DNA of 64,000 bases from an uncultured bacterium (GCA_963845185.1 CAWJRG010000009.1:96001-160000), one strand, 5' to 3'. Positions 15,209 to 50,933 are shown, counted from the first letter of the stretch. The notes: generated by a model from the letters alone, not told the origin. Numbers and translations are program-made.

Positions 15209-16276
15209 ATGGAAACGTATAAAGGCGTAATAGAGCGATACAGGAAATACCTGCCTGTGACAAAAAATACGCCAATAGTGACGCTTCTTGAAGGCAATAC
15301 TCCCCTGATCAGAGTGGACAAAATAGCAAGGATGGCCGGTGAAAATGTCGAGCTTTACGTTAAGTACGAAGGGCTGAACCCGACCGGTTCTTTTAAAGAC
15401 AGGGGCATGACCCTTGCGCTTTCAAAAGCCAAAGAAAAGGGCGTAAGGGCCACGATATGCGCGTCCACGGGAAACACTTCGGCCTCTGCCGCAGCTTATT
15501 CTGCCAGGGCGGGAATAAAAAGTTATGTTATAATACCAAATGGATATATAGCCCTTGGAAAGTTGTCACAGGCATTGATACACGGCGCCATGGTCATAGC
15601 AATTGAAGGCAATTTCGATGCCGCGCTGGGCATAGTGAAAGACATATGCGACAAATACCCAATAGAGCTTGTGAATTCATTAAACCCTTTCAGGATAGAG
15701 GGACAGAAGAGCGGCGCTTTTGAAATAGTTGACGTGCTGGGCGACGCGCCGGATTTTCACGCCATTCCTGTCGGGAACGCGGGCAATATAACGGCTTACT
15801 GGAAGGGATACAGGGAATATAAATCAGCCGGCAAAGCCAAAAAGCTGCCGAAGATGATAGGATTCCAGGCAGCAGGTGCGGCACCCATAGTGCGCGGCTA
15901 TCCCATAGAGAAACCTGAGACTATTGCAACGGCAATCAGGATAGGTAACCCGGCAAGCTGGAAACAGGCAGAAGCAGCCAGGGACGAGTCCGGCGGCCTG
16001 ATAGACATGGTTACCGATGACGAAATAATAAACGCGTACAAAATGCTCTCGCAAAAGGAAGGGATTTTTGTTGAGCCGGCTTCGGCAGCTTCGGTTGCCG
16101 GGGTCTTGAAATATGCCCGGCGCGGCTATTTCCCCAAAAAGAAAAAACTGCGCATCGTGTGCGTCTTGACCGGGCACGGGTTAAAAGACCCGGACAGGGC
16201 TTTAAAGAGCGTGAATTTTAAGCCGAGGGTTGTCAAACCCGACGTAAAAGCAATAATGAAATTAATTAAAAACTAA
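15209..16276 (+). CDS. thrC: Threonine synthase
   Basis: EGLNPTGSFKDRG PLP lysine motif, CASTGNTSASAAAY, PVGNAGN. Confidence 0.96.
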   Translation: METYKGVIERYRKYLPVTKNTPIVTLLEGNTPLIRVDKIARMAGENVELYVKYEGLNPTGSFKDRGMTLALSKAKEKGVRATICASTGNTSASAAAYSARAGIKSYVIIPNGYIALGKLSQALIHGAMVIAIEGNFDAALGIVKDICDKYPIELVNSLNPFRIEGQKSGAFEIVDVLGDAPDFHAIPVGNAGNITAYWKGYREYKSAGKAKKLPKMIGFQAAGAAPIVRGYPIEKPETIATAIRIGNPASWKQAEAARDESGGLIDMVTDDEIINAYKMLSQKEGIFVEPASAASVAGVLKYARRGYFPKKKKLRIVCVLTGHGLKDPDRALKSVNFKPRVVKPDVKAIMKLIKN

Positions 16277-16542
16277 TACCGCTTGTCCTCGACGTAAACG
16301 TCCCGGACTGGAGCGGGTACAAGATAGCGTAATGTTTTGTCGGGTAGTTTTTATATTAGATGACTTATGGAAGCTACCCGCCAAATAGTCCACTGGACTA
16401 TTTGGCTGCCTGTACGGCTTGACAAAACAAACGCTATCATAGCACCGCTTGTCCTCGACGTAAACGTCCCGGACTGGAGCGGGTACAAGTTTCCGTAAGA
16501 TTTTGCCTTAGCTGTTGACGCTCGGCAAAATCAACGGACTCT
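16276..16542 (+). repeat. Structured intergenic repeat family, copies 1 and 2 (identical 46-bp heads at 16278-16323 and 16444-16489)
   Basis: ACCGCTTGTCCTCGACGTAAACGTCCCGGACTGGAGCGGGTACAAG twice, each followed by a long hairpin. Confidence 0.9.
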
Positions 16543-16556
16543 AAGGAGGAGACGAA

Positions 16557-17744
16557 ATGAAGAATATGGTTTTGACGGTATTACTTCTGGTATTTTCTTT
16601 CAGTGCATACGCCAAGAACGCTTTTGATTATTACAACGACGGCGTTGACAAGTATGACGCCAAGGATTATCAGGGCGCGCTTGCCTGTTTCGTAAAGGCG
16701 ATTAAAAAAAAGCCTGAATTCGCAAAGCCTTACAACAAGGCAGGGCTTTCTTACGCGGCAATGAACAATTTCGACCAGGCAATACTTATGTACAAGGAGG
16801 CGGTAATTGCCGACCCGAATTGCGCGGAAGCTTATTACAACATGGCAGTAGGTTACGAACTCGAACAAAAGCCGGCTCTCGCCGTGAAAAACTACACAAA
16901 GGCCATGGACCTGAACAATGACACGCATATATTTGTCAGGGCCTCGCTTAACCTTGCGATGCTGGACAGGGAAGAGGCAGAAAAGACAAAAAACCGCAGC
17001 AAAGACGACGATGCAATAACACTGTTAAGGAACGCGAGTATATATGAGCCGGATTTTGCCGAGCTTTACAATGAGGCAGGGCTGGTTTACCTGGATACGG
17101 AATTTTACGACAAGGCAGTAGAGCAGTTCCAGAAGGCCCTTGAAAAAGACCAGCATTATTCCGAGGCGTCCGTTAACCTGGCGGTTGCATACGAAAAGAA
17201 GGGAAACATTGCAAGGGCATTGAATCAATCGGAAGCCGCACTCAAGCTTGATCAGAATTTTCCGGGAGCGCAGTACAATTACGGCAACATGTGCATTTTG
17301 GACGGGTATTACGACAAGGCAATTGCGCACCTCACGAGGGCAACGGAGCTGAACCCGAAATTTGCAGAGGCGTATTACAGCCTCGGCAAGGCGTACATGC
17401 ATAAAAACATGTTCAAGGAAGCAGAGGATTCCTATAAAAAAGCCTTAAAAATAAACAAGACATTTACGCTTGCCAAACGCGCGCTCGGCACAATGGCAAA
17501 ACTTAAAAAGGATTTAAAAAGCCATATCAAGGCAAAACCCACGCCGGTTCAAGGGCAGGAAGGCGAAACAACAGCCAAGGAAGGCGAGGATAAAACAAGC
17601 GAAAACGGCGAAGCCGCGAAGACTGACGAAGGTTCCAAAAATGATTCTGGAGAAACCAGTGCAAAGGAAGGCGACCAGAGCCAGACGCAGCCCGATAACG
17701 GCGAAGAAGGGCAGGCAAAGCCCAAGGAAGAAGGCTGGGAATAG
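16557..17744 (+). CDS. Secreted TPR protein with acidic C-terminal tail
   Basis: AAGGAGGA RBS, signal peptide, multiple TPRs (AEAYYNMA, AEAYYSLG). Confidence 0.85.
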   Translation: MKNMVLTVLLLVFSFSAYAKNAFDYYNDGVDKYDAKDYQGALACFVKAIKKKPEFAKPYNKAGLSYAAMNNFDQAILMYKEAVIADPNCAEAYYNMAVGYELEQKPALAVKNYTKAMDLNNDTHIFVRASLNLAMLDREEAEKTKNRSKDDDAITLLRNASIYEPDFAELYNEAGLVYLDTEFYDKAVEQFQKALEKDQHYSEASVNLAVAYEKKGNIARALNQSEAALKLDQNFPGAQYNYGNMCILDGYYDKAIAHLTRATELNPKFAEAYYSLGKAYMHKNMFKEAEDSYKKALKINKTFTLAKRALGTMAKLKKDLKSHIKAKPTPVQGQEGETTAKEGEDKTSENGEAAKTDEGSKNDSGETSAKEGDQSQTQPDNGEEGQAKPKEEGWE

Positions 17745-17862
17745 GCTGCATATTAAATTTTAGGCTGAGATTTTTGAATTAAGAACAAAGATTGAACTCA
17801 AAATATGGTACTGATATAAAATCAATATCAAAATCACCAATAAAACATTTAATGGAGAAAAA

Positions 17863-19054
17863 ATGAAATATATTATACTGCTTGCCGACGGCATGGCTGA
17901 CAGGCCTGTGGAAGAACTTGGCAATAAGACCCCGCTTGAGGCGGCAAACACGCCTGCAATGGATGAGCTTGCCAAAAAAAGCACGGCAGGCATGGTAAAA
18001 ACCCAGGTAGAGGGCTATCCTTTCGGCTCGGACATAGGAAACATGACCATACTGGGCATGGACCCGCACGTGTATTATACAGGCAGGGCGCCGCTTGAGA
18101 CCGCTAATATGGGCATCAATCTTGAAGGCAACCAGGTCGCATTCAGGTGCAATCTTGTAACAGTAAAAAATAATATAATGGTGGATTACAGCTCGGGGCA
18201 CATAACAACCGAGGAAGCGAAGGTGTTAATAAAACTCCTTGATAAAAAGCTTGGAGGCAAGGATTACAGTTTTTATCCGGGCAAAAGTTACAGGCATATC
18301 ATGGTTATGAAGGGCGGCGATGAGGTCAAGACAACGCCTCCGCATGATATTTCGGGCCAGGATATAACAGCATACATGCCCAAAGGCAATAAAAGCAAGC
18401 AGCTGATACAGCTCATGCAGGATTCTGTTTTTCTGCTTGACGGGCACGAGGTAAATATCAAAAGAAGGGCAGACGGCAAGAACCCGGCAAACATGATATG
18501 GCTCTGGGGTCAGGGCAAAAAAATGGATTTGCCGAAATTAAAGGATAAATTCGGGATTACAGGAGCGGTCATATCTGCAGTTGACCTTGTGAAAGGCATC
18601 GGGATAATAATGGGCATGGACCCCATAGATGTGCCGGGCGCGACAGGGTATATAGATACAAATTATGAAGGAAAAGCCGCGTACGCCCTGCGCGCGCTTA
18701 AAAAAAATGATTTTGTGTTTTTACATGTTGAAGCGACGGACGAAATGGGGCACAATGGAGAATATCAACGGCAAAGTGCAGGCCGTAGAAAAGTTTGACT
18801 CGCTTATAGTAAGGCCGGTAATGGAAGGCATGAAAAAATTCGGCGAGTATAAGATAATGGTGACGTCGGACCACGCTACGCCGGTGAAGGTAAAAACGCA
18901 TACGGATGAGCCTGTTCCTTTCATGATTTTTAATTCTACAAGGAATACCGAAAACGGCCTGACGGGATTTACAGAAAAAGAAGTTACGGAAAAAAAGAGC
19001 ATCTATTTTGATAAAGGATGGGAATTATTCCCGTATTTTATCAGCGAGGCATGA
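17863..19054 (+). CDS. apgM: Cofactor-independent phosphoglycerate mutase family protein (ApgM / proposed homoserine kinase); 1-bp insertion at ~18761
   Basis: DGMADRP, KTPLEAANTP, GSD, HVEATDEMGH, then TSDHATP...HTDEPVP in the shifted frame. Confidence 0.88.
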
Positions 19055-19079
19055 TTATAATTCCGGAGGTTTATAAGCA

Positions 19080-20318
19080 ATGGCTTTGATAGTCCAAAAA
19101 TACGGAGGCGCTGCGCTTGCCACTCCTGAAAAAATACTCCGTGTAGCAGACAGGATAATAAAAACAAAAAGAAAAGGCAACAGCATGGTGGTTGTGGTGT
19201 CGGCGCCGGGCGATACGACGGACGATTTAATCAGGTTTGCAGGCGAGGTCGCGAAATCGCCGGACGCGCGCGAGCTTGACATGCTGATGGCCACCGGAGA
19301 GCAGAAGTCAATAGCGCTTATAAGCATGGCCCTGATAGATAAGGGCGTGAAAGCAAGGTCTTTCACCGGAGGGCAGGTCGGCATAGTAACGGACAGCAGG
19401 CATACAAAAGCAAGCATTTTAGGCATAAAAGGCATAGGTAAAATTAAACAGGCGTTAAGGCAGGGTTACGTGGCTGTTGTTGCAGGGTTCCAGGGCATAA
19501 CCAAAAAAGAGGATATAACCACGCTTGGCCGCGGCGGGTCCGACCTTTCGGCAGTAGCCCTTGCCAAAGCCACAAGCGCAGATGTGTGCGAGTTTTTAAA
19601 GGATGTAGAAGGCGTTTTTACAGCCAATCCGAAAGTTGTTCCTGATGCAAAAAAGATAAGCGAGCTTTCATATGACGAAATGCTTGAGCTGGCGAGCAGC
19701 GGAGCGGAAGTTTTAAACAACCGCTCTGTTGAAGTCGCGAAAAATTACGGCATTGTTTTACATGTAAGAGGCGCGTTTACAGACAAACCGGGAACAATAA
19801 TACGCAAGGAGGATAAAAAAATGGAAAAGATAGTGGTAAGCGGCATAACCTACAATAAAAACGAAGCAAAGATAACAATATTAAACGTTCCGGACAGGCC
19901 GGGCATAGCTGCCTTGATATTCAACAAGATAGCGGACAAGGATATAAATGTCGACATGATAATCCAGAATATAAGCCAGAAAGGCTCAACCGATGTCTCA
20001 TTTACGATTACAGCCGGAGATTTGAAAAAAAGCAGGAGAGTCCTTGAGGATATAGTGAAAAAGATAAAAGCAAAAGGTTTCATTGTGGACGACGGGATAG
20101 GCAAGGTCTCGATAGTAGGCGCCGGGATGAGGCAGCATACGGGCGTGGCGGCAAAAATGTTTAAGGCTCTTGCGGATGAGAAGATAAATATAGAAATGAT
20201 ATCGACGTCGGAAATTAAAATATCCGTTGTGGTAAAGCAAAAAGATATTGAAAAAGCAGTCAGGGTTATTCACAAAGCCTTTAACCTCGGAAAGAAAAAA
20301 ATATCAAAGGAAAAGTGA
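19080..20318 (+). CDS. lysC: Aspartate kinase (alpha subunit; probable internal beta start at 19821)
   Basis: VQKYGG, VVVSAPGDTTD, TTLGRGGSD, two ACT domains. Confidence 0.95.
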   Translation: MALIVQKYGGAALATPEKILRVADRIIKTKRKGNSMVVVVSAPGDTTDDLIRFAGEVAKSPDARELDMLMATGEQKSIALISMALIDKGVKARSFTGGQVGIVTDSRHTKASILGIKGIGKIKQALRQGYVAVVAGFQGITKKEDITTLGRGGSDLSAVALAKATSADVCEFLKDVEGVFTANPKVVPDAKKISELSYDEMLELASSGAEVLNNRSVEVAKNYGIVLHVRGAFTDKPGTIIRKEDKKMEKIVVSGITYNKNEAKITILNVPDRPGIAALIFNKIADKDINVDMIIQNISQKGSTDVSFTITAGDLKKSRRVLEDIVKKIKAKGFIVDDGIGKVSIVGAGMRQHTGVAAKMFKALADEKINIEMISTSEIKISVVVKQKDIEKAVRVIHKAFNLGKKKISKEK

Positions 20319-20330
20319 GGTGGAATAAAA

Positions 20331-20558
20331 ATGGCAGAAAACAACAACGTCCCGAGCCAGAACCAGACGCAGCCGCAACCGGCAGCCCAGCCCCAGCAGC
20401 AGGCAGCAAACAATGCCGCAGGTGCCGCGGAACAAACCAGGCCAAAAGAAACAAAAAAAGTTGAGGAGTTCTCGCTTATGTGGCATTTGCGGGTACTCGG
20501 AGTAATATACCTGGTACTTATTGTATTTTACGTCATTTTAAAGGTAACTTTAAAATGA
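20331..20558 (+). CDS. Small hypothetical membrane protein with Gln-rich N-terminus
   Basis: GAGGTG RBS, C-terminal TM helix, tightly packed between lysC and cimA. Confidence 0.65.
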   Translation: MAENNNVPSQNQTQPQPAAQPQQQAANNAAGAAEQTRPKETKKVEEFSLMWHLRVLGVIYLVLIVFYVILKVTLK

Positions 20559-22126
20559 GCAAGAAAATTTTTATTTACGATACGACGCTGCGTGACGGGG
20601 CTCAAGGGGCAAAAATATCATTAACGGCCGAGGATAAACTCGTTATAGCAAAAAAACTCGACGAGCTTGGCGTGGATTATATTGAAGGCGGATGGCCCGT
20701 AAAGGGCGTAAATGAAAAAGACATGGAGTTTTTCAGGAAAGTAAAAAAACTGAAATTAAAGAGCGCAAAAATAGCGGCTTTCGGCAGCACGAGAAGGGTT
20801 AAAAATAAAGTAAACCGGGACCCGTTTTTAAATACTCTGATTGAGGCAGACACGCCGGTAATAACAATATTCGGCAAAACATGGGACCTGCATGTGCAAA
20901 AGGTTTTAAATACAACAAACGGGGAAAATTTAAAGATAATAAGGGAATCAGTCGGGTATTTGAAAAGCAAGGGCAGGGAAATCATATTCGACGCCGAGCA
21001 TTTTTTTGACGGATTCAGGGCAAACCCGGAATACGCGCTCTTGTGCCTGAAAGCTGCGGAAGAAGGCGGTGCCGACTGGATAGTGCTGTGCGATACAAAC
21101 GGCGGCACAACCGTAAGTGAAATGGACAGGATTACAAAAGATGTGGCTGAAAATGTGGAAATCCCCCTGGGAATACACACGCACAACGATTCGGAACTTG
21201 CGGTGGCAAACAGCATAATTGCCGTAAACAACGGGTATACCCAGGTACAGGGAACCATCAACGGGTTCGGAGAACGCTGCGGGAACGCGAATCTTGTATC
21301 GATAATGCCCATACTTACATTGAAAATGGATTACGAAACAATACCTGAAAAGAATTTCAAAAAGCTTTCGGAAGTATCGCATTATATATATGATATAGCC
21401 AATATCCCGCCGAATGACAGCCAGCCTTTTGTGGGTAAAAACGCGTTTTCACATAAAGCCGGGGTTCATGCGGACGCGGTGATGAAAGAAAAAACATCTT
21501 ATGAACATATGGAGCCTTCGAAAGTCGGAAATCAGAGGCAGATTCTTATTTCGGACCAGGCTGGAATGTCAAGCCTCTTATACAAGGCAAAGGAACTGGG
21601 CGTCAGGCTTAAAAGAGAAGAGGAGAAAACAAGAGCGCTTATACTGGACATCAAGAACAAAGAAGCCGCAGGATACGAGTATGAAGGAGCGGACGCGTCG
21701 CTTGAACTTTATATTAGAAAGTATGTCTCGGGGAAAAAAGCTTTTTTTGAGCTTGACGGATATAAAGTAATTGTGGAGGAACACAGGGGAGAGATTTTTA
21801 CCGAGGCGACCGTGAAAATAAAAGTAAACGGCGAGACCGCGCATACCGTGTCCGAGGGCAACGGACCTGTAAACGCGCTGGATAATTCCCTGCGCAAAGC
21901 CATTTCGAAATTTTACAAAAATATCAATGAAATCAGGCTTGTGGATTTCAAAGTACGCGTTATAGAAGGCTCTTCGGGCACAGGCGCGAAAGTCAAGGTT
22001 TTTATTGAAAGTTCCGACAAAAAGGATGTCTGGACAACGGTTGGCGTATCTGAAAATATGATTGAGGCTAGCTGGATGGCGCTTGTTGACAGCATGGAAT
22101 ATAAGATTATGAAAGACAAAAAATAA
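20555..22126 (+). CDS. cimA: Citramalate synthase (LeuA/CimA family)
   Basis: YDTTLRDGAQ, YIEGGWP, FDAEHFFDG, HTHND, GERCGN and a C-terminal regulatory domain. Confidence 0.9.
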   Translation: MSKKIFIYDTTLRDGAQGAKISLTAEDKLVIAKKLDELGVDYIEGGWPVKGVNEKDMEFFRKVKKLKLKSAKIAAFGSTRRVKNKVNRDPFLNTLIEADTPVITIFGKTWDLHVQKVLNTTNGENLKIIRESVGYLKSKGREIIFDAEHFFDGFRANPEYALLCLKAAEEGGADWIVLCDTNGGTTVSEMDRITKDVAENVEIPLGIHTHNDSELAVANSIIAVNNGYTQVQGTINGFGERCGNANLVSIMPILTLKMDYETIPEKNFKKLSEVSHYIYDIANIPPNDSQPFVGKNAFSHKAGVHADAVMKEKTSYEHMEPSKVGNQRQILISDQAGMSSLLYKAKELGVRLKREEEKTRALILDIKNKEAAGYEYEGADASLELYIRKYVSGKKAFFELDGYKVIVEEHRGEIFTEATVKIKVNGETAHTVSEGNGPVNALDNSLRKAISKFYKNINEIRLVDFKVRVIEGSSGTGAKVKVFIESSDKKDVWTTVGVSENMIEASWMALVDSMEYKIMKDKK

Positions 22127-22133
22127 TTTTTAA

Positions 22134-22161
22134 GTAGAGGCACGCTATGGCGTGTCTCTAC
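22134..22161. repeat. REP-like palindrome, GTAG family
   Basis: GTAGAGGCACGC-TATG-GCGTGTCTCTAC. Confidence 0.75.
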
Positions 22162-22181
22162 AATGAAAAACAGGTGATAAT

Positions 22182-23306: not shown

Positions 23307-23340
23307 TTTCGGAGTTTAAGATTTTAAACGGAGGTCGATT

Positions 23341-24135: not shown

Positions 24136-24156
24136 TCAATTTCAGGGGCAAAATTT

Positions 24157-24522: not shown

Positions 24523-24572
24523 TAATTTAAAATTGAGGATTATGCAGTATTTAATCCTTCCGGAGGAAATAA

Positions 24573-25301: not shown

Positions 25302-25370
25302 ACTGCTTGAGGTAGTTATAAAATCATTATTCTGTCATACCGCTGTAAAACAGGAGGATAAGGAAAGTAA

Positions 25371-27318: not shown

Positions 27319-28023
27319 ATGAAAGCAAAATTTTTTACAAAAGGTTTGGTTTTTTTGATCGCTGTTATTGTTCTTAGCGGAACCTTATTTGCCGCAGATG
27401 CCCAAAAGGCAAAACAGTATCTGGATTACGGGAATAAATACCTCAGCGCAAAACAATATGACAATGCCATAAAGTACTATCAATACAGTTTAAAACTCAA
27501 TCCCACTGATTCCGGGTATTATGCCCTTGGTATGGCATATTATTATAAAGGGCAGAAGCCGGAAGCGCTGAATTCTTTTCAATATGCTTTGAAAACCAAT
27601 CCGAATAATGCCAATGCAAAAAAGATGGTTGATTATCTGCAAAAGAGCGTCGGAGGCGGCGGGGGCGGCAATACGCAGGCACAGCAATATCTTGCGGCAG
27701 GGACCAAATATTTAAACGCAAAGCAGTATGATTATGCCATAAAATATTATGAAGCAAGCATAAAGATTGAGCCTACATACCAGGCATATCAATATCTTGG
27801 GACAGCTTATTATTATAAGGGAGATAATGACAAAGCAATCGAAGCATTTAATAATTCTCTTAAATTAAATCCGGACAATCCTGCCGTAAAAGGTGTACTT
27901 GCAAAACTTGGGGCAGGAGGTGGAACAACAGAGCAACCGAGAATTTCGAGCCAGATGGGAGTGCATCCTTTATTGCTGGCTGCTATTTTTGCAGGAGCAA
28001 TAGCGGCTTTGTTTCTGTTTTAA
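27319..28023 (+). CDS. TPR protein: two similar TPR modules, signal peptide, C-terminal hydrophobic helix
   Basis: AxQYL..G.KYL.AKQYD.AIKYY is duplicated around a poly-Gly linker. Confidence 0.85.
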   Translation: MKAKFFTKGLVFLIAVIVLSGTLFAADAQKAKQYLDYGNKYLSAKQYDNAIKYYQYSLKLNPTDSGYYALGMAYYYKGQKPEALNSFQYALKTNPNNANAKKMVDYLQKSVGGGGGGNTQAQQYLAAGTKYLNAKQYDYAIKYYEASIKIEPTYQAYQYLGTAYYYKGDNDKAIEAFNNSLKLNPDNPAVKGVLAKLGAGGGTTEQPRISSQMGVHPLLLAAIFAGAIAALFLF

Positions 28024-28045
28024 TCAAATAGCAGTAAATAATATA

Positions 28046-28081
28046 AAAACAGGTGTGGGTAACAGTGCCCACACCTGTTTT
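28046..28081. terminator. Intrinsic terminator, possibly bidirectional
   Basis: AAAACAGGTGTGGG...CCCACACCTGTTTT. Confidence 0.8.
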
Positions 28082-28139
28082 AATTTAAGAAATAATTAAG
28101 TGAAAATTTTTTAAATAATTTTTTGTGGGGTATATCACG

Positions 28140-28898
28140 ATGGAAGGAACATCACCAAACAAACCGCGCCTTAAGCATTATGGCATAGGGCATATTAAAA
28201 GGCTTAAAGACAGGTTTATGCAGGATAAAGTTTCAAAATGCGAAATAATTGAACTGCTTTTAAGCTACGTGATAAAAGGCAGGGATGTAAAATCGCAGTC
28301 AAAAGAAATTTTTAAGTTAAGCAGGGGATGCTTTAAAAATGTTTTGGATATTGCAGGCGGAAATAAAAAAATCAAGGGAATAGGCGGGGAAACAGAAATA
28401 TTTTTTAGGTTAATTAAAAAATTTTTTGACTGCATGGAAGAGGAAAAGTTTGTAAACAAGAAATACTCGGTAAAAACACAAGGGGACGCAATTAAATATT
28501 TTAAAAACATATGTTTATCATCCGACAGGGAGGAAGTGCATGCCGTATTTCTTGACGCTAAAAACAAAATTACAGGCCATAAAAAGATAAGCGAGGGCAC
28601 GCTATCCCAGTCGCTCCTTTACCCGCGTGAAATAATAAAAGAAGCAATTTCGCGGGCGGCTTTAAGCATAATAATCCTGCATAACCATCCAAGCGGTGAT
28701 TCGTCACCTTCGGAAAACGATAAAAAGATAACAAAAAGAATGCTTTTCGCGGCAAGGGAAATGGATATTATGCTGCTTGACCATATAATAATAGGCACAG
28801 AAACAGGCGAAGGCGATAAAGGATATTACAGTTTTTATGAAGAAGGTTTGATTGATAAATACAGGGAAAATTACAGATATGTTATGGAAAAAGAGTGA
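28140..28898 (+). CDS. radC: RadC/JAB-domain protein
   Basis: GTLSQSLLYPRE, HNHPSGDSSPSEND, LLDHIII. Confidence 0.92.
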   Translation: MEGTSPNKPRLKHYGIGHIKRLKDRFMQDKVSKCEIIELLLSYVIKGRDVKSQSKEIFKLSRGCFKNVLDIAGGNKKIKGIGGETEIFFRLIKKFFDCMEEEKFVNKKYSVKTQGDAIKYFKNICLSSDREEVHAVFLDAKNKITGHKKISEGTLSQSLLYPREIIKEAISRAALSIIILHNHPSGDSSPSENDKKITKRMLFAAREMDIMLLDHIIIGTETGEGDKGYYSFYEEGLIDKYRENYRYVMEKE

Positions 28899-40405: not shown

Positions 40406-40413
40406 TAATAATA

Positions 40414-40481: not shown

Positions 40482-40503
40482 ATAATATGAAGGAGGAAGA
40501 TAA

Positions 40504-41750: not shown

Positions 41751-41775
41751 ATAATAAAAAACCGTGTTTATAAAG

Positions 41776-41806
41776 AATTCCTCTCCCAAACAAGGGGAGA
41801 GGAATT
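41776..41806. terminator. Hairpin after the PorV-like gene (terminator or REP-like)
   Basis: AATTCCTCTCCC-AAACAAG-GGGAGAGGAATT. Confidence 0.55.
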
Positions 41807-41815
41807 GTTATTAAC

Positions 41816-41845
41816 TTGAAACCATAATATAGTTCATTGTATAAT
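41816..41845 (+). promoter_or_regulatory. Candidate sigma70 promoter upstream of the repeat array and TPR-exbB operon
   Basis: TTGAAA-18 bp-TATAAT. Confidence 0.45.
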
Positions 41846-41907
41846 AGGGTATATAAAAATAACCGGAACAAAAAGAAACAAACGGTATCTTAATGAATAA
41901 GAAGATT

Positions 41908-42250
41908 ATACCGCTTGTTCTCGGCCTGGCGGCCTCGAACTTGAGCGGCTTGACAGAGTTTGATTTTGCAAGTGTCAACAGCGAAGCAAAATCATTACTC
42001 TGACAAGTCCATGCGAAGCATGGAGTATAAATAATAAATGATGACTAACACCGCTTGTCCTCGGCTAAGAGCCTCGGACTGGAGCGGGTGTAAGATTTCG
42101 TAATACTTTGCCTGCGCCTGTTGACGGCTTGGCAAAGTAAACGCTTGGTTAATACCGCTTGTTCTCGGCCTTGTGGCCTCGAACTTGAGCGGGTATAAGA
42201 TAGCGTAATATTTTGTCGTCGTTTTTGGCTTGACAAAATAAACGCTATCT
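41908..42250 (+). repeat. Structured intergenic repeat family, copies 3-5 (41908-42028, 42048-42147, 42152-42250)
   Basis: Three ACCGCTTGTYCTC...TCGRACTKGAGCGG heads, each followed by a long hairpin. Confidence 0.9.
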
Positions 42251-42265
42251 AAAAAGGAGAAGGAT

Positions 42266-45200
42266 ATGCGAAAAAAGGGCATTTTAATAATTACATTGAT
42301 AGCGGCTTTTATCCTGTCCGGCTACGCCGCGGCCGACCAGCAAAAACCCCCGGACAACAAAGTTTTGGAATCTCTTTCCGACAACTGGTCACAGGTGACA
42401 GACGCATACAATAATTCAAAAGACGACAAGGATACAACTACCAGGATAGAAAACTTTATCCAGAGGTACAAGGATTCAAACAGGACAGAAGCGGCAGGCG
42501 CGCAGTACCTCGAAGGCAAGCTTAATTACAGGGCAAGGCATTACATGCTGGCTTTTGAAGAATACAAGAAAGTGCTCGATAATTTCGGCGGTACACCGTA
42601 CTGCGACAGCGCCATGTACATGATGGGCGAGTGCCAGTATAATATGGGGAAATTCAACGAGGCCATAGAGGCATGGCGTAATTTCCTGGGGAGCTACCCG
42701 AACAGCCTTTTTAAGATGGAGGCAAATTACGGCTTGGCGCTGGCAAACCTGAACCTGAAAGAATATAAAATAGCGGATAAAATCCTGTCGGATTTCCTTG
42801 ATTCGAACAAGCAGTATGAAAAAGACGACAGGGTGCTTCTTATCGGCGGCATTATTGATTATTACCTGGAAAGGTACGACTCCGCAGCGCAGAAACTCGG
42901 GGCGGTAAAGTCGTCGGAAACGGCTTATTATTACCTGGGCCAGAGTTTTTTAAAATTAAACAAGTACACGGACGCGGCAAACGCCTTTAAAAAAGTATAC
43001 GAAGAATTCCCGGCCAGCAGGTACGCGGAAAGCGCGCTTTACAACAAAGCCGAGGCTTTTTTCAAGGGCGAAAATTACACGGTAGCAGCCGGGGATTACC
43101 AGAACTACGTGAAAAGGTACCCGGAAAGCAAGCTGGCATCGTACGCGGATTTTAAAATGGCGTCGTCGCTTTTTAACTACGGCAGTTTCGACGAAGCTAT
43201 AGCCGCGTACAAGAAAGTAGTGCTTACAGGTTCAGACCCGAAACTCAAGGCTTTCGCGCAGTACCTCATAGGCGAGGCATACCTGAATAAAAAGGATTTC
43301 ACAAGAGCCGCCGAAGCGTATGATATTGTGCTTTCGCAGTACCAGTCCCAGTATGAGGCGGTCGGTGCGGCGGCGCTGAAAGCCGGGTGGTGCAACATAA
43401 GGCAGAATAAATTTGACAGCGCAATAACCGCGCTTAATGAGTTTACGAATAAATACATGACAAGCGACAATATAGCGCTGGGGTATTACCTCCTGGGCAA
43501 CGCGTATTATTTAAAAGGGGATTACAATACGCCGATTAATAACTACCAGTTTATCCTCGATAAGTTCAAATACTCTGACCTGTCAGAAGCAGCGCTTCTT
43601 ATGATAGAGCTTTGTTACACAAGCCAGCAGCAATACCAGCGGCTGATTACAACCGCGGCAAACCTGCTTGATATGATGTCGTCGAAATTCCAGTCTTCCA
43701 AAAGCAAGCTCCGCTCGCGCTCTTATTTTTACCTGGGGCTCGCGTACTATAATATAGGCATGTACGGGCCGGCAGCCAGCGCTTTCCAGCAGATAGTGGA
43801 TAAATATTACGACAGCGACATAACGACAGAGACAAGGGCAAACCTGGCGTGGTGCTATTACCAGCTTGGGCAGTACCAGCTCGCGAGAAGGATGGCAACG
43901 GATGTGGCGGAAAGCGACTACGCGAACAAGAAAATAAAGGCAGCCTGCGAAATCCTGGTGGGCCATACTTATTTCAGCGAAAAAAATTATGCAAAAGGCG
44001 CGGCTAAATACGGGGAATTTGCCCTTAACCACGAGAAGGACAAGGATATTGACCCGAACCAGAATATCGGAAGCCCTGTACCAGCAGGGCCAGATATATT
44101 ACATACAGGAATATTATATGGATGCCATAAAGTCATGGCAGGTGCTTGTGGGAAAATACCCGAAATCAAAAAGGGCGCCCGACGCGCTTTATAAAATATC
44201 CGACACTTATTTTAAGGCACAGAAATACGACGAAGCCATAGCCGGGTTCGAGGAAATAATAAAGAAGTGGCCGGACCTGCCTGTGGCCGAGGACGCCATG
44301 TTTTCAGTAGCGCAGGTTTATTATAATTCCGACAAGGAAGACAAAGCCATAGCGGCTTTCAAGCAGTTTACCGAGAAATACCCGAACAGCCTAAAGGCAA
44401 AAAACGGCATAGAAGGGCTGCAGACGGCTTATTTCAAGAAGGGCGAGAAAAACCAGGACCCGGAAACGCTGCTCGCATTTGTGGACAAATACCCGAATTC
44501 AAACCTGGCTGTGGACGCGCTTTATAAGGCCGGCGAGATTTATTTTCAGACTCAAAAATTCCAGAAAGCCATAGACGTATTTAACAGGCTGTCTTCCGAG
44601 CACCCCAACGATACCCTGGCAACGAACGCAAGTTATTACCTGGCTGCCTGTTACGAGGGCCTGCAGAAAACAGACGACGCAATAGAGGCTTACAAGACGT
44701 TTTTGAAGAATTTCCCGAAGCACGAACTGGCGTCCGACGTCATGTTCAGGCTGGCGACAGCCCTGTATAACGCCAAGAAATACCCGGACGCGATAATATA
44801 TTACGAGAAGACCATGGAGAAGTACCAGGGCACCGACTACGCGAAAAATTCGCTTTTTAACGCGGCGCTTTGCTACAGCGAAATAAACAAGATGGACGAG
44901 GCCATAGCCGATTACAGGACTTACGCCCAGAAATACAAAGACGACCCGAAATCAAAGGACATACCGGGCCAGATAGCCACCATATACCTGACGCAGAAGA
45001 GGTATAAGGAAGCCATAGATGCTTATACCGACATCGCGAAAGCCTCCACCAGCACGGCCGACGACACGAGAGCCGAGGCGTGGTACAGGATAGGCGATAT
45101 ATATAAGACAATGGAGCAAAACGATTCCGCAATAACAGCTTTCAGGAACCTTATAGATGTAAAGCCGGCCAACAACCAGTTCAGGGTATCGGCGCTGATT

Positions 45201-45386
45201 GCCATGGCGCAGCTTTATGAAGACAAGCAGGACTGGAAAAACGCGGTCGCTATCTATGAATATATATCTACAAGCGGTGCCCAGAAAGATTATACGGACG
45301 GAGCAAAATCCAGAATAAACGACATCAAGGCCGCGTATCCTGACGCATTCAAGGGAAAAGCGGCAACCAATAACGGACAAAAGTAA
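42266..45386 (+). CDS. Giant periplasmic TPR protein (~1040 aa, BamD/CpoB-like repeats); 1-bp insertion at ~44059
   Basis: Signal peptide and continuous 'YP.S..A..A.Y' TPR repeats across two overlapping ORFs. Confidence 0.85.
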
Positions 45387-45420
45387 AAAAAATTACAAAA
45401 TTTGAAAAGGAGGTCTTAAG

Positions 45421-46078
45421 ATGGGAAGCGGTTATGAAATAGACATAATGCAGGTCTTAAGAAGCAGTTGGGTCATAGTTTTAATGCTTTTTCTTTCAGT
45501 ACTTGTCGTAGCATTTACGATAGAAAGGTGGGTTTATTACCAGAGAACCAAACTTGATTCCGATAAATTCCTGGATAAAATAAAGGGTTTCATAGTGGAT
45601 GGCAAATACGACGAGGCTGTCGAATACTGCAGGAAAATGCCCGGTTCGATACCTATAGTCGTAAAGGCAGGCCTTGACAACAGGGATTTGCCGCGCGAGG
45701 AAATAGACAAACTCATGGAATCAATACGGCAGGAAGAAAGGATAAAGCTTGAACGCTACCTGGGCGTGCTAGGCACGCTCGGCAGCATAACGCCGTTCAT
45801 AGGACTTTTAGGCACGGTCCTCGGCATCATCAAGGCATTCCGCGACCTGGCGAAGCTCTGCCGGTGCAGGGCCTGAAGTTGTCATGGTCGGTATAGCCGA
45901 GGCTCTGGTAGCTACGGCAGTAGGACTTGGCGTGGCAATACCGTCGGTTGTTGTCTTTAATTTTTATATGAGAAAAGTAAAAAATATCGCGGTCGAGATG
46001 GAAGCGGTTGCCAGAAGGTTTATAATACTGCTGGCAAATTATGGAGAAGGGAGCGCACATGCAGGAAGGAAAAGATGA
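45421..46078 (+). CDS. exbB: MotA/TolQ/ExbB proton-channel protein; 1-bp insertion at ~45853
   Basis: LGTLGSITPFIGLLGTVLGIIKAF, then GIAEALVATAVGLGVAIP in the next frame. Confidence 0.9.
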
Positions 46079-46496
46079 AGCAGCAGATTCCATATCTGAT
46101 ATAAATATAACGCCACTTGTAGACGTATCGCTGGTGCTTGTCATCATATTCATGGTGACCTCGCCGCTGCTTGTACAGGCAGGGATAATAGTCGCTTCGT
46201 CGCGTACGACGGCTTCCGAAGGCCAGCATACAAAAGACGAATCCGTGAATATAAATATAACCAAAAAAGGCGTTACGGTGAATAACGAGAAAGTCACCAT
46301 GGACAAACTGGCGGAAGTATTAAAGGCAAGGATACCAAAGGCCAAAGACAAGATGGTTGTAGTCACGGCCGACAGGGACGTATTGCATGGCCAGGTTGTA
46401 AAGATTCTTGACATTTCGAAAATGGCAGGAGCGGCAAAAATAGCATTGATGCGGGACGATAAACTGCCGAAGAATGAAAAGAAAAAGAAAAAATGA
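46059..46496 (+). CDS. exbD: ExbD/TolR protein 1
   Basis: INITPLVDVSLVLVIIFMVT, ADRDV.HG.VV.ILD. Confidence 0.9.
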   Translation: MQEGKDEAADSISDINITPLVDVSLVLVIIFMVTSPLLVQAGIIVASSRTTASEGQHTKDESVNINITKKGVTVNNEKVTMDKLAEVLKARIPKAKDKMVVVTADRDVLHGQVVKILDISKMAGAAKIALMRDDKLPKNEKKKKK

Positions 46497-46500
46497 AAAG

Positions 46501-46535
46501 AGTGATAAGTGGCAGGTGGTAAGTGATAAGTGGTA
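46501..46535 (+). repeat. Heptamer tandem repeat (five copies)
   Basis: AGTGATA AGTGGCA GGTGGTA AGTGATA AGTGGTA. Confidence 0.75.
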
Positions 46536-46557
46536 AATAACTGAAGGAGGCAAGATT

Positions 46558-46977
46558 ATGTCAATGTCAGGCGGTAGCAGCGGAGCAGCGGAAGAACCGA
46601 TTTCCAGCATAAATATTACGCCGCTTGTAGACGTATCGCTGGTGCTTGTTATTATATTCATGGTGACTGCGCCTTTGATAAGCAGGCCGAAATTGTCGGT
46701 TATGCTGCCGAAAGCGTCGACCGACGAGTCGAAAAACGAGGAAAACGTCACAATAACCATAGACAAAGATTCGAAAATCGCAGTGGATTCCAAGACTGTA
46801 ACCACTCTCGATGAAATGAAAAACGAACTTGCCAGGAAAATCCAGATAGCGAAAGAAAAAGTTATAATAATAAAAGCAGATGAAAGCGTAGATTACGGAA
46901 CGGTCATTGACGCGATGGACGCGGCAAAAGACTCGAAGCCGAAAAAAATGTATTTTGCCACGCAACAAAAAAAATAA
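46558..46977 (+). CDS. exbD: ExbD/TolR protein 2
   Basis: INITPLVDVSLVLVIIFMVTAP, KADESVDYGTVIDAMD. Confidence 0.9.
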   Translation: MSMSGGSSGAAEEPISSINITPLVDVSLVLVIIFMVTAPLISRPKLSVMLPKASTDESKNEENVTITIDKDSKIAVDSKTVTTLDEMKNELARKIQIAKEKVIIIKADESVDYGTVIDAMDAAKDSKPKKMYFATQQKK

Positions 46978-46993
46978 CAGAAGGTGATTAACT

Positions 46994-47962
46994 ATGTTCG
47001 CGCATGATTTTGATACAAAAGGAGTAAGCGTATCCGTGAGTGTTTCCGTAGCCCTGCATGTGCTTGTGCTGCTCCTGGTCTTGTTTGTGCAGCACAGGAA
47101 CCTCATGAACAAGGAAAAATACATGCTTACGGAAGTCACCATGATAGAACAGGTGCCGGACGAGCAGAAACCGCAGCCGCAAGTGCAAATGCCAAAACCC
47201 AAAAGCGTGTTTGATATATTGAAAAATATAATACCAATAAAGCAGAAAACCAACCAGCTTGAACTAGCGAAACCGAAAATGCCGGAACTTTCAAAACCCA
47301 AAATTGAGCCTTTAAAACAACAGGCTCTGGACATGGACAAATTAAAGGCCGATAATTTAAAACAGCCGATGAAATCCATAGATATAGACAATGAAATAGG
47401 AAAGAAGAAATTATCCCCGGCCATGGTGGAGCAGGCCAAGTTACAGATGGCGCAGAAGCAGAACCAGCTCGCGCAGGCGCCGGCTTCGCTTAAACTTACA
47501 GAAAACAGCAAGCAGGGCAGCTGGCTGCCGGTGGCACAGCCACAGCTCAGCGGAAAGTCGTTTAACAGGAGCGCGGGCATTGCGGCAGCGCCCTTAAAAA
47601 TCGGCCAGCCAACTCCGGCTCCCAAAAAGAATGTAGAAGAGCAGTTGAATATACCGAAAGAAAAAGGCGCAGCTTTGCTCGTATCAGGGGAGATACAGGG
47701 GAGGAAAATAATAACCGCGGTCGCTCCGCGCTATCCGAGGTCACTGGAAGAGCAGGGAATAGAGGCGCAGGTCGCAGTGGATATAGTAGTAACAGCCAGC
47801 GGCAATGTCAAGGATAACGCCTATGTGAGCCTATCCTCGGGTTATACCGAGTTTGACCAGCCGGCACTTGAAGCGGCGAAGGAGCTGGTTTTCGCGCCGT
47901 TGAGCGGCAACGGGGAAGACCAGTCCGGCACGGTTTTATTCAAATTTCAACTTACGAGGTGA
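46994..47962 (+). CDS. tonB: TonB family energy transducer
   Basis: SVALH TM motif, Pro/Lys-rich linker, PRYP...GIEAQV...SSGY.EFD..ALEA TonB-C domain. Confidence 0.88.
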   Translation: MFAHDFDTKGVSVSVSVSVALHVLVLLLVLFVQHRNLMNKEKYMLTEVTMIEQVPDEQKPQPQVQMPKPKSVFDILKNIIPIKQKTNQLELAKPKMPELSKPKIEPLKQQALDMDKLKADNLKQPMKSIDIDNEIGKKKLSPAMVEQAKLQMAQKQNQLAQAPASLKLTENSKQGSWLPVAQPQLSGKSFNRSAGIAAAPLKIGQPTPAPKKNVEEQLNIPKEKGAALLVSGEIQGRKIITAVAPRYPRSLEEQGIEAQVAVDIVVTASGNVKDNAYVSLSSGYTEFDQPALEAAKELVFAPLSGNGEDQSGTVLFKFQLTR

Positions 47963-47969
47963 GAAGGAA

Positions 47970-48893
47970 ATGAAGAAACACGCTGTCATAATAATATTTG
48001 CCGTTTTATTCGCGGCGTATACGGTTTATGCCGACAACCCGGCGCCCACACCAACTGCGGAGCAGGCGGCAGGCGCTGCGGGAGAAGTCGTTTCTACCGG
48101 GCAGTTACAGCTAAAAATAGAAACAGAAAAGCCCGACATTGACGTGCATACAGACGCAAATGAAGTGGCGGAAGAAGTTGTGAAAACCGAAAGCAACATA
48201 CTGGGCCTGTCAATGGAGGACGTAAAAGACGTTAAAATGAGCCTGCCTGAGACGTTTCACAATTCGAGGGCGGATTATTCTCCGGAAATATCATACCTGA
48301 AGACGCCGCCGGTTTTTAAGCTCAGGCCCAAGATAAATTCAGGCATAGAACTTGAAAAATGGTCGTTTAAAATCACAGACCCCACCGGTTACGCGGTAAA
48401 AGTTTTAAGGGGAGGCGGATCCCTTCCTGACGAGATTGTGTGGGAAGGCTTTGACGATGCCGGCAACATAATAAAAGTCGGCGCGCCTTATTCGTATATT
48501 TTTACCGTAATGGACAAGGCAGGCAACCCGAATTCAATAATAGGAAACCCGAAAGTGGTGGACGCGATAAAGTACAAGAAGGAAGGCAAGACCTTTATCG
48601 TGATATCCAATAAATTCCTTTTCGACAAAGACAGGAAAGATACCCTGACGACGAAAGGCCAGCAGGTATTAAATGAGGTTGAAAATTACATGAAGATGGC
48701 GAATAATTTTCCGGTGACAATGCAGGTTTTTTCCGAAGACAAAGGGCTGGCTTCCGACCAGACGGCAACAATGGAAAAGGTTTTTACGGACGATTTGAAG
48801 CTCGGGAGCAAAATAATTTTGAAAGAAGAGATGTACGGCGACGCAAGCGTACCGAAAAATTACAGGACGATATTTATTATTAACAACGAGTAA
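47970..48893 (+). CDS. Exported protein with FlgD-Ig-like domain and possible degenerate OmpA-like C-terminus
   Basis: Signal peptide; WSFKI.D..G...IVWEGFDDAG resembles the C-terminus of the 40504 PorV-like protein; LFDKD...L...G.QVL. Confidence 0.6.
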   Translation: MKKHAVIIIFAVLFAAYTVYADNPAPTPTAEQAAGAAGEVVSTGQLQLKIETEKPDIDVHTDANEVAEEVVKTESNILGLSMEDVKDVKMSLPETFHNSRADYSPEISYLKTPPVFKLRPKINSGIELEKWSFKITDPTGYAVKVLRGGGSLPDEIVWEGFDDAGNIIKVGAPYSYIFTVMDKAGNPNSIIGNPKVVDAIKYKKEGKTFIVISNKFLFDKDRKDTLTTKGQQVLNEVENYMKMANNFPVTMQVFSEDKGLASDQTATMEKVFTDDLKLGSKIILKEEMYGDASVPKNYRTIFIINNE

Positions 48894-48927
48894 ATAACAC
48901 CCGATAAGCGGCATACAGGGAGAGGTT

Positions 48928-49500
48928 ATGCTATACATTAAATTAAGCGGAAACATAACGGAAAAAGAACGTGTGTCGGAATTGCAGGAAGAACTTATAG
49001 ACATATCAAAGATAAGCGGATGGCAATATGAAATAATAAGCGAGAATTTCCAAACGCTGACTTTTAAAGCAAAAGGCGATCCGGGTCCGAAACCTGAAAT
49101 CGACGAGACGGACGAGAATTTGATACTTTTAAACAGCGCCGATGTTTTCCTTGAGGGTATATCTGTTACTGTGGACGAATACAGCGACCCGTTGAGGATT
49201 ACCTTTGACAAAGACGGCAAACTGGCAAGCATAGTTTTTTATACCACCGACAGGCCGAAAGAAATATCCAACAAGCTAATAATTAAAAAATATGAATTCC
49301 TATATTTTCCCTATATCAAAATAGCCACAACAAATTATGAAAGCCATATTAAAATCACAAGGCTGCTTGATTACATCAAGAAAAAATACATAAAAGACCT
49401 TGAAGTAGTGGACAATTCTTTTTATTGGAACAACAGGGATGAGGAAGAATTAAAAGTAAAAATGTGGGAAGCCTTCCGCAACGACCAGATAATATCGTAA
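48928..49500 (+). CDS. Hypothetical protein
   Basis: 190 aa ORF with GAGG RBS, co-oriented at the end of the operon. Confidence 0.7.
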   Translation: MLYIKLSGNITEKERVSELQEELIDISKISGWQYEIISENFQTLTFKAKGDPGPKPEIDETDENLILLNSADVFLEGISVTVDEYSDPLRITFDKDGKLASIVFYTTDRPKEISNKLIIKKYEFLYFPYIKIATTNYESHIKITRLLDYIKKKYIKDLEVVDNSFYWNNRDEEELKVKMWEAFRNDQIIS

Positions 49501-49716
49501 TTTTTGTTCAATAAAATACAACCTTCCTGGAAAGCTGTTTTGCACATAATATATTTTTATTAAACTCCAGATTGTTGCCTCTAAAAACCGCTATATTTTT
49601 TGAGTATTTTGCTGTATATTATTCTAAAAGAAAGACTATTGACGGCTTATGAAGGGCAAAACCCCTTCAGTTGGGCAGAAAAGGCATATTTTAAAATATC
49701 AGGATGACTTCTATCC

Positions 49717-49743
49717 GTTAAATAGTCCACTGGACTATTTAAC
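49717..49743. repeat. 27-bp palindrome of the AAATAGTCCACTGGACTATTT family
   Basis: GTTAAATAGTCCA-C-TGGACTATTTAAC; sister copy at 16380-16406. Confidence 0.85.
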
Positions 49744-49796
49744 TATGCTACCGGAATATTTAACTCCCTTGTTAAGGAGGAAGAACGGAGATTTTT

Positions 49797-50774
49797 ATGA
49801 TAAAAACAATAGCAGTAATGACTACGGGCGGGGACGCGCCGGGAATGAATGCGGCCATAAGAAGCGTGGTGCGAACGGCAATCAGCTTTGACTTGGAAGT
49901 TTTCGGGGTGGAAGAAGGCTATGCCGGCCTTATGAAAAATTATTTTATTGATATGGGGCTTGAGAGCGTGAGCGGCATAATCAACAGGGGAGGAACTATT
50001 TTAAGGACAGTACGGTCGAAAGATTTTCATACAAAATCAAAAAGAGAATCAGGGTATGAGTATTTATACGAACATAAAATCAACGGCATCATAGTTATAG
50101 GCGGTGATGGCTCGCGCAGCGGAATGAATTTAATAACAAAAGAAACAGGAATACCTTCTGTTTTTATACCTGCATCAATAGACAACGACGTGTTCGGTAC
50201 GGATAATACCATAGGATTCGACACGGCAGTCAATACAGCGCTTGAGGCTATTGACAGGATAAGGGATACAGCCGCATCACACGAGAGGGTTTTTATAGTG
50301 GAAATAATGGGAAGACACCAAGGCTTTTTGACGCTTGAAGTCGGCATCGCAGGCGGGGCAGAGCTTATTTTAATACCGGAGTTCAAAGATAATATTAAAA
50401 TAGACAGGATATGCAGGGTGCTTGATGAAGGTTTTAAACGCGGAAAAAACAGCAGCATAATAGCCATGGCTGAGGGAGTAGGCATGTCGAGCGACATGGC
50501 GAGGGCAATAGGCAAAAAAATGGGTATTGACGCCAGATATACAGTGCTTGGTTATATACAAAGAGGCGGCGCACCAACAGCTTACAGCCGTAAACTAGGC
50601 CTTGTCTTCGGATATGAGGCCGTAGGCCTGCTAAAAAAAATGAAAAAAGGCCAAAGCAAAATGGTCGGCATACAAAACAACAAAATAATAACACCGGATA
50701 TAAAAGACGTCATAAACAAGAAGAAAAAGATAGACAGGGAACTGTACGAAATGAATAAAATTTTTGCGCTATGA
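49797..50774 (+). CDS. pfkA: 6-phosphofructokinase
   Basis: TTGGDAPGMNA, GGTIL, IGGDGS, SIDND, EIMGR, LGYIQRGG. Confidence 0.95.
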   Translation: MIKTIAVMTTGGDAPGMNAAIRSVVRTAISFDLEVFGVEEGYAGLMKNYFIDMGLESVSGIINRGGTILRTVRSKDFHTKSKRESGYEYLYEHKINGIIVIGGDGSRSGMNLITKETGIPSVFIPASIDNDVFGTDNTIGFDTAVNTALEAIDRIRDTAASHERVFIVEIMGRHQGFLTLEVGIAGGAELILIPEFKDNIKIDRICRVLDEGFKRGKNSSIIAMAEGVGMSSDMARAIGKKMGIDARYTVLGYIQRGGAPTAYSRKLGLVFGYEAVGLLKKMKKGQSKMVGIQNNKIITPDIKDVINKKKKIDRELYEMNKIFAL

Positions 50775-50783
50775 TATAAAATG

Positions 50784-50808
50784 ATACCCGATATTTAATA
50801 TCGGGTAT
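50784..50808. other. Perfect hairpin after pfkA
   Basis: ATACCCGATAT-TTA-ATATCGGGTAT. Confidence 0.6.
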
Positions 50809-50816
50809 GAAAACTG

Positions 50817-50921
50817 ATACCGCTTGTCTTCGGCCTTACGGCCTCGGACTTGAGCGGGTACAAGATTTCGTAATACTTTGTCTGCGCCTGTCGACGGCTT
50901 GACAAAGTAAACGAAATCTTG
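50817..50921 (+). repeat. Structured intergenic repeat family, copy 6
   Basis: ATACCGCTTGTCTTCGGCCTTACGGCCTCGGACTTGAGCGGGTA followed by CAAGATTTCGT...ACGAAATCTTG. Confidence 0.9.
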
Positions 50922-50933
50922 GGGAGAGACACA

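Follow-up and report, generated by a model that had tools for sequence, protein, structure and literature searches.

The 64,000-nucleotide stretch of DNA analysed here (the window; GCA_963845185.1 CAWJRG010000009.1:96001-160000, or contig C9:96001-160000 of genome G000) comes from an uncultured bacterium whose 3.5-Mb genome has about 42% G+C and is 99.4% complete. It carries copies of a dispersed repeat of about 100 nucleotides, called the A-B element below, which consists of two hairpins, A and B. The genome holds 185 units of this element, many of them ending just before the Shine-Dalgarno sequence of a gene on the same strand. The interpretation that we tentatively favour, while giving it somewhat less than an even chance, is that the A-B element is a portable structured leader, transcribed together with the downstream gene, whose 5' end is folded, whose second hairpin insulates and whose conserved loop serves for docking.

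In hairpin A, the outer stem is short and covaries, the lower helix or internal loop is irregular and conserved in sequence (ACC-N-CTTGTC ... GACT-K-GA-R-CGGGT), and the tip is hypervariable but paired; hairpin B forms a long stem that covaries and is interrupted by an AA/A internal loop. The first-pass annotation of the window had described a modular structured family with extensive compensatory base changes, and this description is borne out by the copies, their pairing and their covariation. In an alignment of 44 copies (A1), for which the structure was drawn by hand, 90.1% of the cells are paired, compared with 31-42% in controls with slid partners; 19 of the 36 pairs have changed on both sides, and the covariation score was reached by none of 500 shuffles. 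The outer pair, reported as T-A in some copies and C-G in others, does covary (TA 75, CG 32, CA 14 and TG 2 in 132 copies). The further claim that structure rather than sequence is conserved holds for P2, P3 and hairpin B, but not for the inner part of P1, which is conserved in sequence and uncompensated: columns 9-43 (GC 74, TC 26, AC 24) and 10-42 (CG 87, CA 31) each have one fixed side and one that varies freely. The sequence of lower hairpin A is also kept across families while the remainder changes. The hairpin A tip occurs as 97 distinct sequences in 116 instances, yet it is still paired, frequently with a 2x2 pyrimidine mismatch. For the predicted RNA folds, z-scores range from -3.2 to -6.1. 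A kink-turn, a hammerhead core and an internal sigma-70 promoter (TTGAGC, 15 nucleotides, TAATAT) were considered and rejected, by eye only.

A strict regular expression recovered 52 copies of module A from the genome, and a profile made from these copies returned the 185 units (nhmmer, E below 1e-3). The units form 156 loci spread over eight of the 11 contigs: 136 single, 15 double, four triple and one seven-unit array. Counting only the 159 units that extend to the 3' end of the profile, 96 are followed, within 60 nucleotides of the unit end, by a Shine-Dalgarno sequence, a start codon and an open reading frame (ORF) of at least 60 amino acids, and in 90 of these 96 the gap is 1-14 nucleotides, with a mode of 6-9; these 90 units lie no more than 20 nucleotides from a Shine-Dalgarno sequence plus start codon. 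The full-length units other than these 90 number 69; 23 of the 69 run into another unit, and among the other 46 many are composite, with the real end again at a Shine-Dalgarno sequence and start codon. Behind the unit at C11:57210-57318 come a Shine-Dalgarno sequence and a hydrophobic ORF of 29 codons, which the 60-amino-acid cut-off misses, and the leader-type count is therefore a lower bound. The next downstream gene lies on the same strand as the element at 138 of the 156 loci, and the upstream gene does so at 130. This abutment on the Shine-Dalgarno sequence of the downstream gene is the main feature of the family, and the first-pass annotation had lacked it.

No shared function is evident among the genes, mostly housekeeping ones, downstream of the 90 leader-type units. 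A crude signal-peptide score picks out 29 of these 90 genes, compared with 526 of 1698 in the background, and judging by their N-termini the downstream genes presumably include lysA, argG, metK, rplC, atpA, murC, gatC and secG. Six units that end in ACGCTAT(A/G)A (C9:676580, C5:35490, C9:656610, C9:671476, C1:208468 and C5:32834) carry a shared GTTTTCAATTTTCAAT-like motif in the Shine-Dalgarno position. The seven-unit array (C9:916541-917173) has a 100-bp period and lies inside the long leader of a gene, and no terminator was seen after it; about 250 nucleotides beyond the array, in C9:915900-916540, a gene with a signal-peptide-like start begins, which may resemble a family 44 glycoside hydrolase. 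One unit in the genome, at C5:434919, stands alone with a terminator-like hairpin.

No terminal inverted repeats were seen when the two ends of the A1 consensus were compared by eye. Upstream of 119 non-tandem copies the flanking sequence is rich in A and T: A stands at -3 in 80 copies, A or G at -2 in 69 and 44, and T or C at -1 in 79 and 39. The base at -1 forms a pair in P1, and there is no longer flank motif. In 22 of these copies a -10-like hexamer has its first base at -13, as against 0-11 copies at other offsets up to -14, and with the box phased in this way about a fifth of the copies may begin at a transcription start. At the 3' end, similarity between copies stops at or just past the GGAG of the Shine-Dalgarno sequence, and the ATG lies outside the repeat. 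Where a relative's locus (L195) was compared with a C1 site that holds a different repeat, homology restarts exactly at TAGGAGA. That different sequence is a second short hairpin repeat of about 37 nucleotides (CCCTCTCCC-GTCA-AGGGAGAGGG), found in both orientations at C1:222290-222460 and at about 20 other places, and the C1 copy sits just upstream of a Shine-Dalgarno sequence where the relative has an A-B element. The last three nucleotides of the 5' flank equal the three before GGAG in nine of 63 copies, compared with 3.66 (standard deviation 1.64) after shuffling; seven of 2000 shuffles reach nine matches, a weak signal that remnants of upstream modules may cause.

A covariance model built for the element (R1) matches 10 of 23 other genomes of the same order, all of them from outside the window's own family, and none of 17 genomes from other orders of the phylum; the A-B module is specific to one bacterial order. 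Genome G001, of a third family, carries leader-type copies like those of G000. In a sister family and one genome of another family, no copy followed by a Shine-Dalgarno sequence and gene was found by reading, a TATTAT-like box lies directly upstream of many sister-family copies (also by reading), and a terminator-like hairpin lies within a few bases of 15 of the 21 copies, compared with 25 of 159 in G000. These terminator calls follow an energy-based rule; a stricter regular-expression rule gave 8 of 21, missing obvious hairpins. Judged by these sequence features, the sister-family copies look like multicopy small-RNA genes. Three-unit arrays occur both in the window and in another genome (G014). 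In two relatives (L047 in G003 and L048 in G021), hairpin B-only units alternate with repeated copies of a short, coding-like fragment whose end is a Cys-rich motif, a pattern that looks like tandem duplication of the 3' end of a gene together with the hairpin.

One locus of the stand-alone, sister-family kind is shared as an orthologous site by four genomes from two genera; a divergent radC and a TPR gene that is convergent flank it, and the flanking proteins are 64-87% identical. Among the 32 predicted pairs of its units, 10 show compensatory changes, and two cells are broken. No other observation speaks as clearly for selection on the fold at an individual locus, rather than solely in a master copy. 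In the window, homologues of radC and the TPR gene lie side by side (about 27337-28889), and R1 finds no element between them.

An A-B junction pattern recovered 23 stretches of metagenome contigs with 29 units, from relatives 72-92% identical to G000. The same pattern had no match in a collection of viral contigs, and a metagenome scan with the beta-CASP protein encoded beside one of the window copies found no relative. A loose pattern run over 596 billion bases of genome contigs returned 117 stretches from unrelated phyla, which were taken for chance without an R1 check.

Comparison of syntenic flanks in these relatives shows both retention and turnover, with copies gained and lost at 75-90% identity. 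Both genomes have the element at L201, L200, L209 (two sites) and L205. Three others are filled in the relative only: L215 compared with C1:243946-244032, L209 at 408-505 (L209a) compared with C10:857812-857891, and L195 compared with C1:222290-222429. The site at C10:883706-883812 is filled in G000 only, as compared with L200, and C10:550423-550700 in G000 holds an apparent collapsed remnant. Tandem number varies at several sites, and a completely different hairpin A can stand before a hairpin B, ribosome-binding site and gene that are all orthologous. Two pairs of leaders are clean orthologues, and their identities are 104/109, compared with 89.7% for the coding flanks, and 98/111, compared with about 80%.

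If the element is a portable leader, it would be transcribed with the gene and form the final stretch of the 5' untranslated region (UTR), ending 0-7 nucleotides ahead of the Shine-Dalgarno sequences of unrelated genes. Hairpin A would supply a structured 5' end to the transcript, with a -10-like box just upstream in about a fifth of the copies, and its conserved loop would be a putative docking site for a lineage-specific factor. Hairpin B would tie up the upstream sequence, so that the ribosome-binding site is left single-stranded. Consistent with this model, minimum-energy folds leave the ribosome-binding site open, and the predicted accessibility of the Shine-Dalgarno sequence and start codon is 0.557 for 90 units, compared with 0.490 for 250 background sites (p=1.5e-4). 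The element would have spread by copy-and-paste or by ectopic recombination, with neither visible terminal inverted repeats nor clear duplications of the target.

Several results weigh against the model of a portable leader. The gain in accessibility is small, and its background is a crude ORF list. Transcription itself is something that we infer from sequence, as are the roles of stabiliser and insulator and the binding of a factor. The first-pass annotation had proposed that G-T wobbles favour the + strand, and this does not hold: 132 copies contain 115 G·U and 188 A·C, the counts are 110 and 133 when two non-covarying pairs are left out, and the hairpin A tip alone has 23 and 24. The - strand of copy 6 in the window folds as well as the + strand (-50.5 and -50.4 kcal/mol). 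The lack of a G·U excess over A·C, together with this equal folding of the - strand, means that most single copies show no RNA-specific constraint, and many may be decaying neutrally. In eight pooled pairs of units, stems and unpaired positions differ at equal rates (128/566 and 66/278), in a pool where most pairs are not clean orthologues because hairpin A is swapped or a further module (D, a two-hairpin insertion) is inserted in p2, p3, p4, p5, p7 and p8. In addition, the junction sequence tracks the subfamily, with TAAGGAG after ACGGACTC in 9 of 13 copies and AAGGGAGG after ACGAAATC in 7 of 17 (rows counted by hand), and the ribosome-binding site may therefore travel partly with the element rather than just being exposed by it. 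Finally, the nesting of module D, the module swaps and the pattern of gain and loss are what would be expected of selfish DNA.

The genome was searched for known mobilisers. No Y1 transposase or RAYT (PF01797) was found in the nearly complete G000 (control positive in 6 of 14 genomes), nor was TnpB (PF07282; control positive in 8 of 14), and the co-distributed RAYT or TnpA HUH mobiliser that the first-pass annotation had suggested looking for is therefore missing from this genome. The genome does contain 37 DDE_Tnp_1 matches, seven IS110-family matches, six group II intron reverse transcriptases and three tyrosine recombinases. Reverse transcriptase and IS110, also proposed as candidates, are thus both present, but an R1 unit is absent near five of the six intron places and three of the seven IS110-family places that were fetched; none lies within 1.5 kb of those five introns. 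The six group II intron copies (C9:700695-701384 and five others) are identical, with reverse-transcriptase matches of 142.1 bits each; two of these loci were scanned and matched group-II-D1D4-6 and Intron_gpII in Rfam, and the copy at C11:62007-62696 is within about 1 kb of an A-B unit. A partial IS110-family transposase match (40.9 bits, C9:95578-95796) ends about 200 bases before the window starts.

Among the alternatives, a serious one, though doubtful on balance, is that the elements are selfish non-autonomous DNA. The hairpins would then act as single-stranded DNA or cruciforms, like those of REP, PATE or insertion sequence (IS) ends, leader position would reflect the choice or tolerance of targets, and the RNA would have no role. 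Two-way gain and loss (L215 and L209a empty in G000, C10:883706 the reverse), the decayed remnant on C10, the variable tandem number and the nesting of module D in hairpin tips would all fit such a history, as would the wobble pairs without strand asymmetry, the equal folding of both strands, the IS-rich genome and the weak match between 5' flank and 3' junction. It has to be set against these that known mobilisers of this type, Y1/RAYT and TnpB, are missing from a 99.4% complete genome, that no terminal inverted repeats were seen, and that R1 units are absent from several of the IS110-family and intron places. The sense orientation toward the downstream gene, the compensatory evolution at one orthologous locus in two genera and the greater identity of orthologous copies than of their coding flanks also speak against selfish DNA, as does the resemblance of sister-family copies to promoter-RNA-terminator units. 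A related proposal, which we rate as rather improbable, would make the A-B element the recognition unit of an undescribed copy-and-paste system that places RNA cassettes at expression signals, later adopted by the host as a post-transcriptional layer that is read through the loop and titrated by arrays. Its targets would be ribosome-binding sites in the G000 lineage and terminator-like hairpins in the sister family; a dedicated factor would read the hairpin A loop, and tandem or stand-alone copies would titrate that factor.

The elements might instead form a trans-acting network, in which hairpin A binds a global RNA-binding protein, stand-alone and tandem copies serve as small RNAs or sponges, and the leaders make up the regulon, as in Csr/Rsm systems. 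The conservation of lower hairpin A across families, the stand-alone terminator-like units (15 of 21 in the sister families and one in G000), the seven-unit and three-unit arrays and the placement of leader copies right at ribosome-binding sites are compatible with such a network. Yet no candidate protein can be named and the target genes are functionally unrelated; the tips are hypervariable and share no loop motif, and the seven-unit array lies in a long gene leader with no terminator seen after it. We consider a network of this kind unlikely. The 5' leader position beside the Shine-Dalgarno sequence, the conserved internal loop and the tandem arrangements could also suggest that the element is a riboswitch or RNA thermometer through which a common signal controls the neighbouring ribosome-binding site. 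This is very improbable, given that prediction leaves the Shine-Dalgarno sequence more open than background and no alternative pairing with it was seen, that the downstream genes are unrelated and sister-family copies have none, that the internal loops are small, and that the element matches nothing in Rfam. Least probable is an integron-type attC site or other boundary of a site-specific recombination cassette. Structure is indeed kept more than sequence, the position is intergenic and the long hairpin has unpaired bases, but the 156 scattered loci on eight contigs lie before core housekeeping genes, the consensus has neither an RYYYAAC nor a GTTRRRY core, and the genome has only three tyrosine recombinase matches, none of them in the window. 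The two classes that the first-pass annotation had offered, a new cis-element or noncoding RNA family and a non-autonomous mobile element, are both still compatible with the data.

Within the window, R1 recovered all six reported copies on the + strand, with scores of 39.5 to 113.1 bits, and a fixed-length version of the reported module A pattern matches five times, against 0.00 expected from 100 shuffles; copy 6 is not matched because its tip is shorter. The extent of the family had been underestimated: the six copies are real, but they belong to the roughly 185 units of the genome, and the window also contains a weak, diverged seventh copy (10683..10780, + strand; R1 22.8 bits, E 4e-4; nhmmer 24.8 bits), beyond whose end the ATG of a Kelch-repeat gene lies 9 nucleotides away (10788). 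The layout of A followed by B is kept in copies 2, 4, 5 and 6, but copy 1 contains an insertion and copy 3 has another module in place of B.

Copies 1 and 2 are adjacent. Copy 1 (16273..16438, + strand; R1 66.8 bits) begins at the stop codon of a PALP-family gene (15209-16276; Pfam) and consists of hairpin A and a hairpin B with module D in its tip. Module D (16343..16408, + strand) is a 66-nucleotide two-hairpin insertion; used as a query it gave 34 BLAST matches in the genome, a count that includes its own site and some partial matches, and these lie inside the tips of hairpin A or B. Nested in this way, module D behaves as a separate small insertion that targets tips. Copy 2 (16439..16548, + strand; R1 95.4 bits) is canonical, with the terminal sequence TAAGGAGG, and it ends at the ribosome-binding site of a TPR gene whose ATG (16557) lies just 3' of it.

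Copies 3 to 5 form an array, about 60 nucleotides upstream of which lies a promoter-like site (41816..41845, + strand; TTGAAA, 18 nucleotides, TATAAT) that matches 11 of 12 positions in a consensus scan and is a consensus match only. Copy 3 (41905..42026, + strand) was found by R1 at 41905-42007 with 39.5 bits; its hairpin A runs to about 41948 and is followed by module C (41949..42026, + strand), a 78-nucleotide two-hairpin unit that replaces hairpin B. As a query, module C gave 14 BLAST matches, its own site included, and the full-length ones lie directly 3' of the GAGCGG (or a near variant) that closes hairpin A. Copy 4 (42045..42148, + strand; R1 91.2 bits) is canonical and is directly followed by copy 5 (42149..42256, + strand; R1 105.9 bits), which is also canonical and has AAGGAG just after it; the ATG of a 642-amino-acid TPR protein with a signal-peptide-like N-terminus is at 42266, 3' of copy 5. 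Copy 6 (50814..50925, + strand; R1 113.1 bits) is canonical as well. It lies between a phosphofructokinase gene (49797-50774) and a gene for a beta-CASP protein of the metallo-beta-lactamase fold, which has a TTG start at 50934.

The family was reported not to be recognised as any in Rfam, and this is upheld: a scan of the whole window against Rfam 15 at gathering scores returned only a tRNA, relaxing the threshold to E of 10 around the copies gave only sub-threshold noise, and nine loci from relatives searched at E up to 0.01 again gave only a tRNA. Among described repeats, BOX of Streptococcus pneumoniae and ERIC/IRU of enterobacteria are modular, co-transcribed intergenic repeats with stable hairpins and a variable number of modules, and are not known to have a dedicated transposase. 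Unlike the A-B element, they are found in both orientations and in no fixed register with a ribosome-binding site, and to our knowledge modules A, B, C and D are unrelated to them. The PATEs of IS200/IS605 and the REP/BIME repeats are likewise small hairpin repeats with no terminal inverted repeats or target duplications and with an orientation bias. However, G000 has no Y1, RAYT or TnpB, whereas PATEs insert 3' of a fixed tetra- or pentanucleotide beside the left-end hairpin, only A followed by A or G was seen in the 5' flank of the A-B element, and A-B elements lie before genes, not behind them. As for miniature inverted-repeat transposable elements, no terminal inverted repeats were seen by eye and R1 was empty in three of seven IS110-family places; as for Csr/Rsm targets, the hypervariable tips do not share a GGA loop motif, and the likeness is limited to leaders plus multi-unit RNAs.

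Literature searches found no description of the A-B family, and a term search of one Goldbacteria genome paper returned no passage on repeats or noncoding RNA. The nearest described analogue appears to be REP2 of Neisseria, with the similar IR elements of Borrelia, a likeness judged from their description. Neisseria meningitidis has 26 copies of REP2, 14 of them before co-regulated genes, and in REP2 and the Borrelia plasmid IR-A/IR-B type the promoter, ribosome-binding site and ATG lie within the repeat (PMC3184786). REP2, as described there, resembles the A-B element in being a dispersed intergenic repeat of about 100-150 bp with no terminal inverted repeats and two internal stem-loops, in lying immediately upstream of ORFs as a 5' UTR with a ribosome-binding site at its 3' end, and in having an unexplained origin and mode of spread (PMC3184786). 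As far as that description goes, the A-B element differs in its roughly 185 units, in lacking the ATG and in having a phased -10-like box in only about a fifth of its copies. It differs also in its unrelated housekeeping genes, strong covariation, tandem arrays and nested modules, and in the stand-alone form, with terminator-like hairpins, of a sister lineage.

For annotation, A-B elements account for many of the long and highly structured intergenic regions in this candidate lineage, and they should be masked ahead of screens for riboswitches or small RNAs. The family also bears on a question that dates from the work on REP2, namely how leader-type repeats without transposase signatures originate and spread, and it allows one RNA module to be compared across sister lineages in two settings, a likely small-RNA gene and an mRNA leader. 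If about 3% of the genes of this bacterium do share one portable structured leader, the element would be either a very successful parasite of the genome that lands in an unusual place or a general means of controlling how stable mRNAs are and how they are translated. In either case it would be a natural cassette that combines an insulator with a ribosome-binding site.

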